From NCBI GenBank assembly GCA_013336225.1, contig JAAXUC010000001.1, forward strand, positions 35,949 to 99,948: a stretch of 64,000 nucleotides of DNA. Direction: 5' to 3'. Below the pieces are notes generated by a model that had not been told where the DNA came from, did not search any database, and was given only the letters and a program-made list of their open reading frames with translations. Within the stretch, counting starts at the first letter, position 1, and the number at the start of each line of letters is the position of its first letter. The position numbers were made by a program, and so were the translations under genes. Source of the DNA: Candidatus Moraniibacteriota bacterium. Its GTDB lineage: Bacteria; Patescibacteriota; Minisyncoccia; Moranbacterales; GWC2-37-73. Below, piece after piece: positions 11,764-61,859 of the stretch.

Positions 11764-11883
11764 TGTAATAAAAAATTTCGAATTTCCAATTTTGAATTTT
11801 GAATCAAATCTGAATGAATTAATGTTTAAAAATTTGAAACATTAGAAATTCATTCAAAATTCAAAATTCAAAATTTAAAATTA
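11764..11883. repeat. Palindromic intergenic heptamer-arm element, copy R3
   Basis: Arms of AATTTCGAATTTCCAATTTTGAATTTTGAA, a central AATGTTTAAAAATTTGAAACATT hairpin, and arms of AAATTCATTCAAAATTCAAAATTCAAAATT. Confidence 0.6.
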
Positions 11884-15154: not shown

Positions 15155-16048
15155 ATGGCGACATTATATACAGAGGCTGACAAAAATACACGTTTAACCT
15201 GGGTTTATATCACGGGCTTTTTAATATTTGTGATTGGAGTGGGCTATGTTTTTGCGGGAGCGATGGGAAATTCTGCCATTTTGTATGGTGCGGTGATCTT
15301 TTCAATCTTGATGAGTTTCGGCTCATATTGGTGGAGCGACAAAATTGTTTTAGCCATGAGCAGCGCAAAAGAGGTGACACATGAGGGAAATATGGAGTTA
15401 TACCACCTTGTGGAAAACCTGTGTATAACTGCTGGACTCCCAACTCCCAAGATTTATATTATTGAAGATTCTGCTCCCAATGCTTTTGCCACTGGTCGCG
15501 ATCCTGAGCATGGCGTGATTTGTGTGACCACTGGACTGTTGGATAAATTGGAGAAAATTGAGTTGGAAGGTGTGATTGCACATGAACTTTCGCACATTGG
15601 CAATCGCGACATTTTGCTTTCCACGGTGGTGGTGGTTTTGGTGGGCTTTGTGGCTTTGATGGCAGATTGGTTTCGTCACTGGGCATTTTTTGGTGGCAAA
15701 AGTGATGATCGCGACAAGGGGCAATTCGGCCTGATTTTAATGGTGGTGGCAATTGTGCTTTCAATTTTAGCTCCAATTGCCGCGATGCTTATGCAATTGG
15801 CAATTTCACGTAAACGAGAATTTTTGGCTGATGCTAGCGCAGCACTGCTCACTCGCTATCCTGAAGGGCTGGCCAGGGCTTTGGAAAAGATTTCAGGCGA
15901 CCAAGAGCCACTCGAAGCTGCAAACCGCGCCACAGCTCATCTGTATATCTCAAATCCTTTCAAAGGTAAAAACATTTCCAAACTTTTTTCCACGCATCCA
16001 CCCATGGAAGAGCGCATTGCAGCATTGCGAGGTGTAGAGGTGAAATAA
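15155..16048 (+). CDS. htpX: Zinc metalloprotease HtpX (M48 family)
   Basis: HEXXH is present as HELSHIGNRD. There are four TM segments, and the C-terminal motif STHPPMEERIAAL is characteristic. Confidence 0.85.
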   Translation: MATLYTEADKNTRLTWVYITGFLIFVIGVGYVFAGAMGNSAILYGAVIFSILMSFGSYWWSDKIVLAMSSAKEVTHEGNMELYHLVENLCITAGLPTPKIYIIEDSAPNAFATGRDPEHGVICVTTGLLDKLEKIELEGVIAHELSHIGNRDILLSTVVVVLVGFVALMADWFRHWAFFGGKSDDRDKGQFGLILMVVAIVLSILAPIAAMLMQLAISRKREFLADASAALLTRYPEGLARALEKISGDQEPLEAANRATAHLYISNPFKGKNISKLFSTHPPMEERIAALRGVEVK

Positions 16049-16057
16049 AAAGTATGA

Positions 16058-16106
16058 CCTCACCTGTCATGAGTACATGACATCCTCTCCTAAAAAAGGA
16101 GAGGAA
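16058..16106 (+). repeat. Twin-hairpin element, copy 1: a TGTCATG-AGTA-CATGACA hairpin followed by a CCTCTCC-TAAAAAA-GGAGAGG hairpin
   Basis: It lies immediately after the htpX stop. A near-identical copy at 49445-49494 shows compensatory changes in the second stem. Confidence 0.6.
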
Positions 16107-16126
16107 ACTATTGAAGAAAACTTTGT

Positions 16127-16624
16127 ATGCAATGGAAAAAACCTAAGGATACGGATAAATATCGCTGGACGACGCATGTCACGGAGAAGATGCATTTTTA
16201 TGGACTCTCGGAACAAAAAGTTTTGGGCGTGATTCGAAAACCGCAGCGCATCGAGAGCAGCATCGTGGAAAATACAGTGGCGGTGATGTTGCCAGTGGGA
16301 AACATCACTATAGGAAGTGCCAAGCCAAAATGGGGCAGGCCTGTTTTTGGAAATAAAAAGCAAGAAGAAAGTTCTGAAGAAAAAAAGAAACAAGAAAGTT
16401 GGAATCAAGAAATCTGGGTGCTGTATCAAACAAAGTCGCAAGAAAAAAAATTCAAAGACAAAACTCTGGGCGAAAAAAAGGATGAAAATATTGCTAAGTT
16501 GCAAAGAAAAATCAATCCCAGTAAGCAAATCACAATTATCTCAGCTTGGCGCTATCCGGGGGTGAGTCCTAAGAATAATCCTATTCCGGAGGAAATTATG
16601 CGAGAAATTGAATGGATAACATAA
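16127..16624 (+). CDS. Hypothetical protein with an N-terminal DUF4258-like region and a lysine/glutamate-rich tail
   Basis: The N-terminus (RWTTHVTEKMHFYGLSEQKVLGVI) fits the H-x3-M-x2-R/Y-G-I/L-S-x3-V pattern of DUF4258-like small proteins. The rest is a low-complexity K/E-rich stretch. Confidence 0.4.
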   Translation: MQWKKPKDTDKYRWTTHVTEKMHFYGLSEQKVLGVIRKPQRIESSIVENTVAVMLPVGNITIGSAKPKWGRPVFGNKKQEESSEEKKKQESWNQEIWVLYQTKSQEKKFKDKTLGEKKDENIAKLQRKINPSKQITIISAWRYPGVSPKNNPIPEEIMREIEWIT

Positions 16625-19584: not shown

Positions 19585-19661
19585 GGCAGCTTTTTAGGCT
19601 TTAGCTTATCAACTTCTTAGGAAATACAAAATATAAAATTAACATGACTATGTCATGTTCT

Positions 19662-19730
19662 GGAGGGGTCGCAGTGTGGGCCGAATGCGAAGAACATGAG
19701 CATTCGGCGGGTTTCAAAAGAAACCCTGGC
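19662..19730 (+). other. tRNA-Ser-like 5' fragment (acceptor 5' strand GGAGGGG plus D-arm-like region), followed by a GAGCATTC-containing hairpin
   Basis: GGAGGGGTCGCAGTGTGGGCCGA parallels the 5' end of the intact tRNA-Ser (GGAGAGGTCGCATAGTGGTCGAG). It is preceded by the palindrome AACATGACTATGTCATGTT at 19641-19659. Confidence 0.4.
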
Positions 19731-19823
19731 AAAAATTCAAAACATTTTTTTGCTTGAGGCTTTGCCGAGTTTTAAATGATTTGAATTTTTGAGTGCACCT
19801 TCATTGTTAATTAGTTTCAAAGC

Positions 19824-19910
19824 GGAGAGGTCGCATAGTGGTCGAGTGCACCACCTTGGAAAGGTGGCATACTGTCAAAGGTATCGGAGGTTCGAATCCT
19901 CTCCTCTCCG
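19824..19910 (+). tRNA. tRNA-Ser (anticodon GGA), long variable arm, no encoded CCA
   Basis: Manual fold: acceptor GGAGAGG/CCTCTCC, D-arm GCAT..GTGC, anticodon stem CCACC/GGTGG with loop TTGGAAA, variable arm CATACTGTCAAAGGTATC, and T-loop TTCGAAT. Confidence 0.85.
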
Positions 19911-19923
19911 CTTTGAAACTAAA

Positions 19924-20103
19924 AAGGTGGCATACTTTAAACGGTATCGGAGGCTGTAAATTATAAAGAGCAAATGATTTTGCTAATTATAATTTACAGC
20001 GCCAGAGCAATTTTTCGTCAGCAGACAAAAATGCGAGGCGGTGGCCAGACAAATTTTTGTGGCGACAAAAATTTAGTCGAGACCGAATCCTCTCCCCTCC
20101 GCC
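19924..20103 (+). pseudogene. tRNA-Ser 3' fragment spanning anticodon-loop 3' side, variable arm, T-arm and acceptor. It is interrupted in the T-loop by an insert of about 130 nt, and its acceptor strand CCCCTCC is complementary to the 5' fragment at 19662.
   Basis: AAAGGTGGCATACTTTAAACGGTATCGGAGG matches the intact tRNA at 28 of 31 positions. After the insert, the sequence resumes with GACCGAATCCTCTCCCCTCCGCC. Confidence 0.5.
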
Positions 20104-20120
20104 TTTAAAATTAAAAAATT

Positions 20121-41995: not shown

Positions 41996-43228
41996 TTACT
42001 TCATTTTCAAATTTGCATGCGGTTGCATGGTTTTCCAAGCAGAAATTGATTTTTTTCTTTGCGCGTCTGACATTTTGTTCCAGCGAAAAGCAGCGGCAGC
42101 TGCAATCATGGCAGCATTGTCACCAGTCAAGGATAAGGCTGGGATAATATATGAAACTTCGGACAGATTTTTTTTAATAGCTTCGCCAAGTTGCGCGCGC
42201 AATTCTTTATTGGCACTGACGCCACCAGCCAGCAAAATTGTTTTTGGTTGGTGGGCTTCAGCTGCTTTGATGGTTTTTGCGACAAGCACATCCACAGTTG
42301 CTTGTTGAAATTCATGGCAGATTTCTGTAAGATATTTCTTATCTTTTAAAAGTTCTGGATGTTTTTTGGTTTCATATAGTACCGCAGTCTTGAGTCCGGA
42401 AAAAGAAAAATCATAATTTTTTTTGTTGAGCATTGGGCGTGGAAATTGTATTCCATATTTCGTATCTTGCATCCTATATGAGCCGTTTTGATTTCTGGTT
42501 TTTTCTTTTTGACATTTGTCATTTGGATCTTGAAATTTCTCAGCCATAGCTGAGACGACAGGTCCGCCCGGATAGCCAATTCCTAAAATGCGAGCGACTT
42601 TGTCAAAAGCCTCGCCAACTGCATCGTCCAAGGTTTGTCCGATGATTTCATATTGCAGATGATCTTTCATGAGAACGAGTTGGGTGTGACCACCAGACAC
42701 CACCAAGCATAAAATTGGGAATTTTATGCTTGGTGAATTTTGAATTTTGAATTTTGAATTTTGAACGATGGAAGATTCTTTTTTATTTGTAATTTCTGTA
42801 TTTCGAATTTGTTTGGAATTTAGAATTTGAGATTTAGGATTTACGCTAATGAAATTGGCGTAAATGTGCCCCTCAATATGATGAATTCCCAAAAGTGGCT
42901 TTTCCCAGAGATAGGAGAGGGTTTTGGCATAGCTAACCCCCACTAGCAGCGCTGGGATGAGCCCTGGGCCTTGAGTCACTGCAATGACATCAATGTGCTC
43001 TGGCGAAACTCCGGCCTCTCTCAGGGCAAAATCAAGCAAATGGTCGATATTTTTCACGTGCTCACGAGCGGCCAAGTTTGGCACAACTCCACCCCATTTG
43101 GCATGCAGTTTTATTTGCGAAGAAACCTCGCTGGCTAAAATTGCAAGTCCTTGAGCCGATGATTTCAAAATTGAAATTGCGGTGTCGTCGCAAGAAGTTT
43201 CAATGGAAAGTATTAGATTATTTGACAT
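41996..43228 (-). CDS. tsaD: tRNA N6-adenosine threonylcarbamoyltransferase TsaD (Kae1/Gcp family), carrying heptamer-repeat-derived in-frame insertions
   Basis: Conserved TsaD blocks are present (SIETSCDDTAISIL, GIHHIEGHI, VVSGGHTQL, GEAFDKVARILGIGYPGGP). An insertion of about 40 aa encoded by TTCAAAA/GAATTTT tandem repeats lies at 42733-42840, and a second QDTKYGIQ repeat-derived segment lies near 42405-42480. Confidence 0.85.
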   Translation of the reverse strand: MSNNLILSIETSCDDTAISILKSSAQGLAILASEVSSQIKLHAKWGGVVPNLAAREHVKNIDHLLDFALREAGVSPEHIDVIAVTQGPGLIPALLVGVSYAKTLSYLWEKPLLGIHHIEGHIYANFISVNPKSQILNSKQIRNTEITNKKESSIVQNSKFKIQNSPSIKFPILCLVVSGGHTQLVLMKDHLQYEIIGQTLDDAVGEAFDKVARILGIGYPGGPVVSAMAEKFQDPNDKCQKEKTRNQNGSYRMQDTKYGIQFPRPMLNKKNYDFSFSGLKTAVLYETKKHPELLKDKKYLTEICHEFQQATVDVLVAKTIKAAEAHQPKTILLAGGVSANKELRAQLGEAIKKNLSEVSYIIPALSLTGDNAAMIAAAAAFRWNKMSDAQRKKSISAWKTMQPHANLKMK

Positions 43229-48123: not shown

Positions 48124-48281
48124 GTTTTTTTATTTGAGATTATTTCGTGCTTTTATTTGTATCTACAAATTTTTAATTTTTAATTTATAATTTTTAATCA
48201 AATCTAAATTTCTGAATTTTTAAATTAAGACATTGAAAATTCATTTCAAATTTCGAATTTCAAATTAAAAATTTTGGAAAT
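48124..48281. repeat. Palindromic intergenic heptamer-arm element, copy R4 (more degenerate)
   Basis: Tandem AATTTTTAATTT arms, a central hairpin, and a right arm of AATTTCGAATTTCAAATT, directly upstream of the GT4 start. Confidence 0.5.
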
Positions 48282-49460
48282 ATGCGCGTAGCGATATTTA
48301 CAAATAATTACCTGCCTAATCCTTATGGCGTTGCGGGATCAATCGAAAGTTTTCGCAAGGAATTTGAAAAGCTTGGACACAATGTCTATATTTTTGCGCC
48401 GGAGACAAAGGGCTATGTAAATGAAAATCCGCATGTCTTTTTTTATTCTGCACTTAATTTGAGATTTAAAAATATCAAGTTTCCAATTGCAATTCCATAT
48501 TCCTACCGCGTTGATAGGATTTTGGAAAAATTGGAAATTGATGTGGTGCATTGTCAGCATCCAAATTTACTTGGAAGTGCTGGGAAAAAATGGGCGCAGA
48601 AAAAAAACGTACCCTTGGTTTTCACTTGGCACACTTTGTATGACAAATATGCTCATTTTGTGCCACTTATTCCCAGCTCTTGGGCTGCTAAATGGGCGAT
48701 TGGAAATGCAGTTGGCTTTGCCAATGATTGCGATCAAATTGTGGTTCCCACGCAGGGCGTGAAAAACATTATTGAAGCTTGGGGAGTTATAAATGAAAAT
48801 ATTGTTGCAATTCCAACTGGCGTGCAAGAAAGTTTGGTTGCAACTGATGGCAGAGAAAAAGCTCGCCACGAATATGAAATTACTGATGATGAAATTGTGA
48901 TCACGTTGGTTTGTCGCATCACACCTGAAAAAAACGTGCTTTTCCTGGCTAATGCGATGAAAAATATTTTGCAGAAAAATGAAAAAGCAATTTTTGTGTT
49001 GGCTGGTGACGGCAGCGATTTGGCAGAGGTGAAAAAAATGTTAACCAATGACAAGATTGGTCAGCGGTTCAGGTTTTTTGGCATCGTGAACAGCGAAGAA
49101 AAAAGCAGGATTTATGCGATGTCGGACATTTTCGTGTATGCCTCAAAATCAGAAACCCAAGGCATGGTACTGACAGAGGCGATGAGTGCTGGCTTGCCGA
49201 TTGTGGCAGTGGAAGCCACTGGCGCAAAAGACTTGGTGGAAAATGGCCAAACAGGATTTTTGGTCGAAGAAAATGAAACTGCTTTTGTTAATGCAGTGCA
49301 AAAATTGATTGATGGGGAAAATTTGCGAAAAAGTTTTGGTGAAAATGCCAGAAAAATTGCCATGGAAAAATATACCAGTCAAGCTTGCGCCGCAAAAATG
49401 CTGGCTGTTTATGAGGAGGTTGTTAAAAGAAGAAAGCAGCTAAACCCTCATCTGTCATGA
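48282..49460 (+). CDS. Glycosyltransferase family 4
   Basis: The GT-B C-terminal block is YASKSETQGMVLTEAMSAGLPIVAVEATGAKDLV. Confidence 0.8.
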   Translation: MRVAIFTNNYLPNPYGVAGSIESFRKEFEKLGHNVYIFAPETKGYVNENPHVFFYSALNLRFKNIKFPIAIPYSYRVDRILEKLEIDVVHCQHPNLLGSAGKKWAQKKNVPLVFTWHTLYDKYAHFVPLIPSSWAAKWAIGNAVGFANDCDQIVVPTQGVKNIIEAWGVINENIVAIPTGVQESLVATDGREKARHEYEITDDEIVITLVCRITPEKNVLFLANAMKNILQKNEKAIFVLAGDGSDLAEVKKMLTNDKIGQRFRFFGIVNSEEKSRIYAMSDIFVYASKSETQGMVLTEAMSAGLPIVAVEATGAKDLVENGQTGFLVEENETAFVNAVQKLIDGENLRKSFGENARKIAMEKYTSQACAAKMLAVYEEVVKRRKQLNPHLS

Positions 49461-49494
49461 GTACATGACATCTTCTCCCTGAGATGGAGAAGAA
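49445..49494 (+). repeat. Twin-hairpin element, copy 2. The GT4 stop codon TGA lies inside the first hairpin.
   Basis: CCTCATCTGTCATGAGTACATGACATCTTCTCC matches copy 1 at 31 of 33 positions. The second hairpin CTTCTCC-CTGAGAT-GGAGAAG shows a compensatory base change relative to CCTCTCC...GGAGAGG. Confidence 0.6.
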
Positions 49495-49633
49495 AACAAT
49501 GAAAGAGCTATTATAAGGAAAGAAAATAAAATAAGAAGGGTAGTAATTGATATTGATTATATAAAAAACAAAGTTGTTGAGTTTGGAATTTTCTTTATGA
49601 ACTTTTCACTTTATAAACTTTATAAACCAAATT

Positions 49634-50221
49634 ATGTACGAAGCAAAAAAATTTGATCACTTGCTGGGACTGGAAGGTTTTTCTGACAAATTGCTCACCA
49701 ATCATTTCACTTTGTATGAAGGATATGTGGCCAACACGAACAAAGCAGTAGATGCCATTGCTGGTCTTTTGGCAGAGGATAAATCGGGCACGCCTGAATT
49801 TGCTGAAATCACACGCAGATTTGGTTGGGAATTCAATGGAATGCGACTGCATGAACTGTATTTTGAAAACATGATGAAAGGCGGATCAGTCTTGGATGCA
49901 AATTCTCCACTTGGCCAGAAGATTGTCGAGCAATTTGGATCGATTGAGAATTGGGAAAAACATTTTCGAGCGGTGGCTGCCATGCGCGGAATTGGCTGGG
50001 TTGTGCTATATCTGGACAATGAAAGTGGCAAAATGTATAACATGTGGATAAATGAGCATGACGGTGGACATCTTTCCGGAGCGACACCACTGCTGGTGAT
50101 GGATGTGTTTGAACATGCCTACATCACTGACTATGAAATCAAAAGAGCTGCATATATTGATGCTTTTATGAAAAATATTTGTTTTCATGTGGCCAATGCG
50201 CGTTTCAGCTTGGTAAATTAG
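49634..50221 (+). CDS. Fe/Mn superoxide dismutase family protein (divergent N-terminus)
   Basis: The C-terminal signature DVFEHAYITDY corresponds to the SOD block D-x-W-E-H-A-Y-Y. Candidate His ligands are present (NHF, LHELYF). Confidence 0.7.
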   Translation: MYEAKKFDHLLGLEGFSDKLLTNHFTLYEGYVANTNKAVDAIAGLLAEDKSGTPEFAEITRRFGWEFNGMRLHELYFENMMKGGSVLDANSPLGQKIVEQFGSIENWEKHFRAVAAMRGIGWVVLYLDNESGKMYNMWINEHDGGHLSGATPLLVMDVFEHAYITDYEIKRAAYIDAFMKNICFHVANARFSLVN

Positions 50222-61590: not shown

Positions 61591-61633
61591 TATGCGAAAT
61601 ACAGTGTTTTGAAAAAAGTGAGTAAAATTTTTT

Positions 61634-61810
61634 GATTTGCCTGTTTCCTTTTTCGGCACGCTCGCAATTGAGGAACTATTGTTTAGCGGAGTGAGCGAAA
61701 TGAAATAGTAATTTCATTTCCGAACGAGCGACAACAACAAGCTTGCTTATAATTGCTTCGCTAAGACCTCGCTGTCGCTCGCTATTGCCTCAAAAGAAAA
61801 CAGCCAAATC
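61634..61810. repeat. MITE-like GC-rich element (family G), the longest copy. It shares both ends with 34010-34115 and has an internal insertion of about 70 nt carrying a CGCTCGTTCGGAAATGAAA hairpin motif.
   Basis: TTTCCTTTTTCGGCACGCTCGCA ... GCTTCGCTAAGACCTCGCTGTCGCTCGCTATTGCCTCAAAAGAAAACAGCC, with imperfect terminal inverted repeats GATTTGCCTGTTTCC / GAAAACAGCCAAATC. Confidence 0.6.
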
Positions 61811-61859
61811 AAAAAGAAATTTTCAAAGCATGTATTTCGTGTGATCAATTTCTGTTTTT

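Follow-up and report, generated by a model that had tools for sequence, protein, structure and literature searches.

Two short elements with the same pair of hairpins, one after htpX and the other at the end of a GT4 glycosyltransferase gene, raise the question of whether a conserved RNA structure is tied here to the 3′ ends of genes, or whether a piece of DNA has been inserted at both places. In the window, as we call the whole 64-kb stretch of DNA analysed, both copies were found on the plus strand, copy 1 at 16058-16105 and copy 2 at 49445-49493, and a recount gave the 31 identical positions out of 33 that the earlier note had reported for them (CCTCACC-TGTCATGAGTACATGACA-TCCTCTCC at 16058-16090 versus CCTCATC-TGTCATGAGTACATGACA-TCTTCTCC at 49446-49478). 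The copies and their surroundings comprise the following features.

15155..16048, plus strand: htpX, upstream of copy 1, with PF01435 homologues
16058..16064, plus strand: C-box of copy 1, CCTCACC; its minus-strand G-box GGTGAGG is a candidate third (reverse-Hoogsteen) strand
16065..16082, plus strand: hairpin 1 of copy 1, TGTCATG-AGTA-CATGACA, in place of the 3-nt linker of the BoxC/TM motifs discussed below
16083..16105, plus strand: hairpin 2 of copy 1, with pyrimidine arm TCCTCTCC(T), loop and purine arm (A)GGAGAGGA
16106..16126, plus strand: A-rich tail of copy 1, AACTATTGAAGAAAACTTTGT, which reaches up to the ATG (16127) of the ORF downstream
16127..16624, plus strand: conserved ORF of 165 aa that follows copy 1 and, in relatives, stands in synteny behind htpX
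48282..49460, plus strand: GT4 glycosyltransferase gene, whose last five codons and stop are supplied by copy 2
49429..49517, plus strand: filled/empty stretch of 89 nt, present in the window and missing from Logan contig L029, a single gap in the global alignment
49445..49452, plus strand: C-box of copy 2, CCCTCATC (minus strand GATGAGGG); its C-to-T difference from copy 1 matches the G-to-A difference in the purine arm
49453..49470, plus strand: hairpin 1 of copy 2, the same as in copy 1, including the GT4 stop TGA at 49458-49460
49471..49493, plus strand: hairpin 2 of copy 2, TCTTCTCC-CTGAGAT-GGAGAAGA, from sequence and fold
49518..49543, plus strand: relic of the displaced GT4 3′ end, GAAAGAAAATAAAATAAGAAGGGTAG, in alignment with the final codons and TAG stop of the gene in L029

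Each copy is predicted to fold into two adjacent hairpins (fold z = -4.5 for copy 1 and -3.0 for copy 2), and the 21-mer core occurs exactly twice in the window and in none of 100 shuffles. Hairpin 2 has a stem of 9 bp and a loop of 5 nt in copy 1, and a stem of 8 bp and a loop of 7 nt in copy 2. Its arms, TCCTCTCC/GGAGAGGA and TCTTCTCC/GGAGAAGA, differ by the compensated change from C-G to T-A that the earlier note had pointed out, and the loops are indeed unrelated. A third position, overlooked there, changes along with this pair, as the C of the C-box becomes T (CCTCACC to CCTCATC). Only two pyrimidine/purine hairpins exist in the whole 64 kb, hairpin 2 of copy 1 among them. The elements were also rightly set apart from ordinary intrinsic terminators, as a T-run is absent 3′ of either copy and a terminator scan gave no match at either of them. 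In an Rfam search of the window the gathering score was reached by tRNAs only, and relaxed thresholds gave nothing credible at the elements.

Several other repeats and structures are present in the window. The palindrome AACATGAC-TAT-GTCATGTT, suggested before as a relative of the elements, does exist at 19641-19659 but was rejected as a family member: it has a fold z of -1.3, lacks flanking boxes, gives no match to the covariance model described below, and belongs to a set of about 45 distinct hairpins in the window that have a perfect 8-bp stem. Between this unrelated palindrome and tRNA-Ser, a GC-rich structured stretch extends over 19660-19740 (GCCGAATGC...GCATTCGGC, then GGGTTTC..GAAACCC), which has no Rfam match up to E = 1. 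The 3′ end of tRNA-Ser (19824-19911), at 19893-19925, is repeated 191 nt downstream at 20084-20116 with 85% identity, and this repeat could be what is left of a second tRNA or a duplicated attachment site. Another intergenic repeat family, at 33995-34120 and 61619-61815 (80-88% identity), has terminal inverted repeats of about 19 nt (TTTTTGCTTTAGCTATTT...AAAATAGCTAAAGCAAAAA) and looks like a MITE; the copy at 61619-61815 contains an extra internal segment of about 71 nt with a palindrome. AT-rich intergenic repeats built of AATTTCGAATTT / TTCAAAATT units lie at 453-567, 1109-1216, 11774-11882, 42736-42801 and 48168-48273, and similar runs also occur in the spacers of relatives, e.g. after htpX in L033.

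The repeat family and its third block

An exact scan of 185,579 species genomes with the hairpin-1 18-mer revealed 28 loci. Moraniibacteriota/Patescibacteria MAGs account for 26 of these, the largest number in a single MAG being 11, from Lac Pavin. The contig CAYVME010000012.1 (L006), labelled 'uncultured Bdellovibrionales', was counted among the 26, since it carries the same Moranbacteria-type module and CPR-like neighbours; it is probably mis-binned. All copies belong to one common frame, CCCTC(A/T)(C/T)C, hairpin 1, YCYTCTCC(C), loop and (G)GGAGARGR, and the sequence 5′ of the C-box varies between genomes. A covariance model built from ten copies located about 60 non-overlapping modules in the 18-mer loci and, in the window, only the two known copies. 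Covariation across the family supports both hairpins. Among 53 distinct sequences, 95.2% of cells are paired in an alignment that was fitted to the model and is in this respect biased towards the structure; double changes affect 12 of 16 pairs, 0 of 500 shuffles reach this level, and in slid registers the pairing collapses. Many copies are related by descent, and the counts do not represent independent events. In other modules, hairpin 1 is swapped for hairpins that keep the pairing (TGTCACGAGTACGTGACA, TGTCCTCCGGACA, CGGCTTTCAGCCA, TGCCCTTCGGGCA), and linker lengths in related modules are most commonly 3 nt (45/102), and 17-19 nt where hairpin 1 is present.

In regard to neighbouring genes, the elements are found in either orientation and are antisense in the Lac Pavin MAG, and the genes next to them have no function in common. 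Solo copies outside Lac Pavin lie mostly on the same strand as the neighbouring genes and 19-22 nt before a start codon, and from this position they may exert some side effect on RNA or on translation. In the Lac Pavin MAG, modules also act as building blocks of a composite repeat of about 250 nt, consisting of a module on the minus strand, a 56-nt AT-rich spacer and one or two modules on the plus strand. This composite is seen at positions 2040-2300 of locus L004 and at ten similar loci of the MAG JAPLXG01, with small hairpins (CCTGCCTACCGGCAGGCAGG) inserted at variable places. The A-rich tail at 16106..16126 is probably part of the copy 1 unit, with an approximate 3′ limit, and a similar tail (..AWTGAAGAAA..TTT) follows modules in L003, L006, L009, L020, L027 and L015. 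Two extensions of the unit were rejected: pairing of the 5′ flank with the 3′ tail into a closing helix (GCCCTC/GAGGGC, L002), which other copies do not keep, and a 90-nt extent of the repeat family D4, whose distal part is partly an A-rich chance similarity, given that the ATG region of copy 1 is orthologous gene sequence. A literature search on Moranbacteria/CPR repeats gave nothing relevant.

The C-box in front of hairpin 1 mirrors the arm of hairpin 2, and on the minus strand the order in both copies is pyrimidine arm, loop, purine arm, hairpin 1 and G-box. As the G-box is the reverse of the purine arm, it could occupy the major groove in antiparallel orientation and form the triplets G*G-C, A*A-T and T*A-T. 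Copy 1 (TCCTCTCCT-ttttt-AGGAGAGGA-[hairpin 1]-AGGTGAGGT) has 9 of 9 allowed purine-motif triplets, with the flanking A and T included, and copy 2 (TCTTCTCC-atctcag-GGAGAAGA-[hairpin 1]-AGATGAGG) has 8 of 8. Since both copies satisfy the triplet rule, the G/A difference between them would be a compensated base triple (G*G-C to A*A-T). A motif of the triplex type was absent from 200 shuffled windows; when only the flank was shuffled, a perfect third strand appeared in 11 of 20000 trials for copy 1 (8-nt) and in 196 of 20000 for copy 2.

The same relation is found in the fetched loci. For 166 pyrimidine/purine hairpins with non-symmetric arms, taken from all of these loci (67 distinct arm sequences, not all independent), the flank matched the mirror image better than the direct sequence in 123 and the other way in 6, so the C-box was taken as a mirror repeat, and its reading as a target duplication or direct repeat of the arm of hairpin 2 was rejected. 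With the register between box and pairs set from the C positions alone, the box carries C opposite G-C pairs in 590 of 616 cases, while opposite A-T pairs it carries T in 144 and A in 101 (245 of 273 together) and C or G in only 28. Such a rule is, judged by sequence, that of an antiparallel purine-motif intrastrand triplex, and the elements fit a three-stranded fold. Covariation of the third strand with the hairpin shows that the relation of the three strands is itself constrained and not a by-product of base composition. Opposite A-T pairs A is as frequent as T, which disfavours a pyrimidine-motif triplex on the plus strand, the type compatible with RNA. Purine-motif triplexes are not formed by RNA (Holder et al. 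2015, PMC4666352), and a third block that obeys its rule argues that the constraint acts on DNA. The selection on RNA structure put forward before can therefore be kept as far as a conserved, constrained structure is concerned, but its assignment to RNA does not agree with this rule, with the occurrence in either orientation, or with the absence from orthologous loci described next.

Insertion into and between genes

At the GT4 locus, copy 2 is an insertion polymorphism. Logan contig L029 contains a GT4 gene that is 88% identical, followed by the same SOD gene, and the element is absent. GAAAG stands at both junctions of the 89-nt stretch at 49429-49517, and it is the only possible target duplication in the family, at one site. 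As the single clean filled/empty pair comes from genomes that differ by about 12% in protein, the exact ends are uncertain, and so is the GAAAG duplication. Copy 2 landed in the last GT4 codons and provided a new five-residue C-terminal tail and stop: the protein ends in ..RRKKTEQGR* in L029 and in ..RRKQLNPHLS* in the window, and the NPHLS ending is absent from the other 59 GT4 homologues with printed C-terminal ends. The earlier note had correctly placed the GT4 TGA inside hairpin 1, and this position follows from the insertion into the 3′ end of the gene and is not a design feature. In the Logan assembly of run SRR11449212 all 3179 bases match the window, and 49400-49640, including copy 2, is unchanged.

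In three relatives with HtpX 86-90% identical, the synteny of htpX and the downstream ORF is kept, and the spacers between them (122-191 nt) contain hairpins, two of which are followed by a T-run as in ordinary terminators. The covariance model gave zero matches in 44 kb from the htpX relatives. In the window this spacer is just 78 nt long, nearly all of it element, and the ATG of the downstream ORF (16127) is orthologous in relatives without the element. Copy 1 appears to have been inserted into the htpX-ORF spacer, where relatives carry the terminator-like hairpins, and would have replaced the spacer with its terminator and promoter; due to this replacement, the downstream ORF is probably co-transcribed with htpX. 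Sequestration of a Shine-Dalgarno sequence by hairpin 2 was considered and rejected, as GGAGAGG lies 22 nt from the real ATG. Short ORFs that begin after hairpin 2 (MKKTLYAMEKT*, MKELL*) conserve neither frame nor length across copies.

Furthermore, modules are inserted in frame within two genes, both visible as gaps against PDB homologues: an insert of about 32 aa in the peptidyl-tRNA hydrolase gene pth (L021) and an 18-aa insert, ALSCHEYMTSSPEGRGAV, in rlmN (L007). Among the roles suggested earlier, a DNA-level recombination site comes closest to these observations, and an RNA element tied to gene 3′ ends does not fit them.

DUF559 genes beside the modules

In three of the 18-mer loci, L006, L009 and L010, a DUF559 gene of 115-126 aa (PF04480, E 1e-38 to 1e-41) is directly bracketed by modules; the closest solved structure to the DUF559 proteins is 3HRL of N. 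gonorrhoeae. The association was tested independently on 80 metagenome loci that were fetched by the DUF559 protein alone. There, 63 of 70 non-overlapping model matches lie within 150 nt of a DUF559 gene, a zone that makes up 11% of the sequence. Upstream of the gene modules are mostly inverted (24:8), and downstream mostly direct (26:5), with the C-box proximal to the gene in 56 cases versus 17. Pyrimidine/purine hairpins are about 66-fold denser beside the gene, and at least one is present in 59 of 68 loci. The Lac Pavin composite aligns at both ends with the DUF559 element of L072 and has about 50 nt instead of the gene; it would be either a gene-less derivative or an empty site of the DUF559 element. 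At L072 1462-1785, the DUF559 gene is without the conserved KFRRQH segment, which marks it as a decaying copy, and the terminal modules are intact. A DUF559 gene is absent from the 64-kb window.

Similar motifs accompany DUF559 genes in other bacteria. Deinococcus proteolyticus has perfect motifs 18 nt before and 3 nt after the gene, Sphingomonas has several motifs on both sides, Azospirillum has a perfect motif just upstream, and in N. gonorrhoeae the nearest one is found about 180 nt downstream. The orientation of motif and gene differs, with the G-box distal in Deinococcus and proximal in Moranbacteria. In E. coli K-12 a TM_ECO motif is located 167 nt past the stop of ycjD. In the same genome (NC_000913.3; L116 7205-7470, minus strand), a second copy of the final ~50 nt of ycjD lies behind the gene, and ycjD ends inside a degenerate pyrimidine/purine hairpin (..RRSPSP*), followed by the canonical TM_ECO/BoxC motif at L116 7241-7205. 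This remodelling of the ycjD 3′ end is of the same kind as that of GT4 in the window. What is new is that modules flank genes of DUF559, a Vsr-like nuclease, as inverted repeats, from Patescibacteria to Deinococcus and E. coli; a search of the literature for a link between DUF559 and these repeats found none. To our knowledge, DUF559 is not a known transposase.

Affinity of the elements and the way they may spread

The BoxC/PIT/TM repeats have been known from E. coli since the 1990s, but we know of no function or spreading mechanism that has been found for them. The names BoxC, PIT (potential intrastrand triplex) and TM_ECO refer to the same repeats (Hoyne et al. 2000, cited in Holder et al. 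2015 NAR, PMC4666352), with the pattern CCCTCNCCC-N3-6-GGGNGAGGG-N3-GGGNGAGGG of the class II purine motif. According to the latter study, the TM_ECO triplex is stable in isolated single strands and was undetected in duplex DNA or by in vivo footprinting, TM loci are patchy between strains and tied to local instability, and mobility-related genes were not found near TM_ECO (PMC4666352). The elements described here are built alike, with a C-rich arm, a short loop, a complementary G/A arm, a linker and a mirroring G-rich block on one strand. In both window copies the pyrimidine arm forms a short-loop hairpin with a complementary purine arm, and the block 3′ of the purine arm is its reverse. Likewise, the Moranbacteria family is multi-copy, dispersed, mostly intergenic and present in both orientations, with frequent inverted pairs, a patchy distribution among close relatives and an association with small rearrangements. 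On the other hand, the literal TM_ECO pattern with its second loop of about 3 nt is not found in the window copies, which have hairpin 1 as a linker of 17-18 nt and TCCTCTCC(T) arms: the arms are shorter (8-9 nt, CCTCTCC-type) and the 3-nt linker of TM_ECO is replaced by the conserved 18-nt hairpin. The hosts are also different, CPR for the window elements, and Proteobacteria for TM_ECO, with other triplex motifs reported also in cyanobacteria. Finally, Moranbacteria copies are inserted in coding sequences and linked to DUF559, whereas TM_ECO lacks nearby mobility genes according to Holder et al. The linker, the arm type and the CPR host are thus the differences, and related modules do have 3-nt linkers, so the window elements can be regarded as a variant of BoxC/PIT/TM.

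Other systems share only some of these traits. The REP/REPIN-RAYT system (REPtron) also consists of short structured intergenic repeats, with many gene-less singlets and inverted doublets and a single-copy partner gene between inverted repeat copies, as is the case at the DUF559 loci. REP elements are imperfect palindromes with a conserved 5′ GTAG and are partnered by a Y1/HUH transposase, while the window family is without the conserved GTAG, its partner is DUF559 (PF04480) instead of an HUH/Y1 transposase, and the Moranbacteria repeat has a third block of the triplex type. Rickettsia palindromic elements (RPE) were reportedly described by Ogata et al. in 2000 as in-frame palindromic inserts tolerated in housekeeping genes, and the extra peptides in pth and rlmN resemble them in this. 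However, RPEs belong to another lineage, and the Moranbacteria unit is much shorter (about 50-90 nt); we know of no triplex-type block reported for RPEs. Similarity to MITEs is seen in the Lac Pavin composite (~250 nt), which has inverted terminal modules and equals the L072 DUF559 element minus the gene, but a recognised transposase is absent and terminal inverted repeats are lacking in the solo modules of the window. MITEs also derive from an autonomous element by internal deletion and carry a target-site duplication, for which GAAAG is the one candidate here.

Taken with the covariation of both hairpins and of the third strand, the insertions and the DUF559 association, the elements are probably solo copies of a dispersed, insertion-prone Moranbacteria DNA repeat of the intrastrand-triplex (BoxC/PIT/TM) class, with the inverted repeats around DUF559 genes as source modules. 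According to such a model, modules would be the inverted terminal repeats of elements with a DUF559 gene, and gene-less pairs and solos would be their non-autonomous relatives. The fold of hairpin and third strand may arise in transiently single-stranded DNA, during replication, repair or cruciform extrusion. The DUF559 nuclease would then recognise this fold, and its nick or break could lead to copying of the module, or of the gene into pairs of modules, by a homing or transposition-like route. A wider proposal, which we hold possible rather than probable, is that intrastrand-triplex repeats throughout bacteria, among them E. coli BoxC with ycjD, have DUF559 nucleases as dedicated partners that drive their copying.

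Alternatively, the elements could be cis-acting mRNA elements, such as an intercistronic stabiliser, a processing site, a terminator without a U-tract or a translational modulator, under selection for RNA hairpins. REP elements are known to stabilise upstream mRNA, both hairpins covary, and the window copies and most solos outside Lac Pavin are on the sense strand between co-directional genes, at the short distance from the next ATG given above. We nevertheless consider such a role unlikely, as the elements are missing from the orthologous GT4 and htpX loci of close relatives, are antisense to their neighbours in the Lac Pavin MAG and occur in frame inside coding sequences, the third block, in which A or T stands opposite A-T, agrees with a purine-motif triplex of DNA but not with pairing in RNA, and PIT elements have no promoter or terminator activity in E. 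coli (PMC4666352). A rather improbable alternative is that the modules are not themselves mobile but serve a free-standing DUF559 homing endonuclease gene as sites for homing or landing, and that solos were generated by other routes, such as replication slippage or illegitimate recombination at a sequence prone to form structure. DUF559 is placed in the Vsr clade (PD-(D/E)xK), which includes EDxHD homing endonucleases, some of them free-standing; gene-less inverted pairs such as the Lac Pavin composite resemble empty sites of the L072 element, and in E. coli small rearrangements are concentrated at TM loci (PMC4666352). Against this stand the solos, which were inserted in unrelated sequence (the GT4 3′ end, pth, rlmN) without a prior module pair.

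Two further explanations have very little in their favour. Hairpin 1, whose perfect 7-4-7 palindrome is the same in the two copies and recurs unchanged at 26 related loci, would suit the operator of a dimeric DNA-binding regulator controlling the downstream genes. Still, this is highly improbable, because hairpin 1 is replaced elsewhere by unrelated pairing hairpins (TGTCCTCCGGACA, CGGCTTTCAGCCA) or by the 3-nt linker, occurs inside coding sequences as well, and neighbours genes that share no function. Least probable, to the point of being negligible, is a chance similarity, or a recent local duplication without wider meaning, the latter having been named in advance in the refuting case: the window does hold just two copies, but the match was reproduced in 0 of 100 shuffles and dozens of copies are present in other genomes.

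If the elements are solo copies of a triplex-class DNA repeat, as we consider probable, the BoxC/PIT/TM class extends to CPR, where it is elaborated by an extra hairpin. In these genomes, the class reshapes genes through a new C-terminus, in-frame peptide insertions and terminator loss. For annotation, this means that the repeats create spurious or altered ORF ends in MAGs, e.g. ..NPHLS*, ..LTPALSREERE* and ALSCHEYMTSSPEGRG. The flanking of DUF559 genes offers a concrete candidate protein for what spreads the repeats. Should the wider partnership hold as well, a PD-(D/E)xK nuclease and a triple helix of DNA would together make up a REPtron-like or homing system, and this would answer a question raised in the 1990s, namely where such repeats come from.
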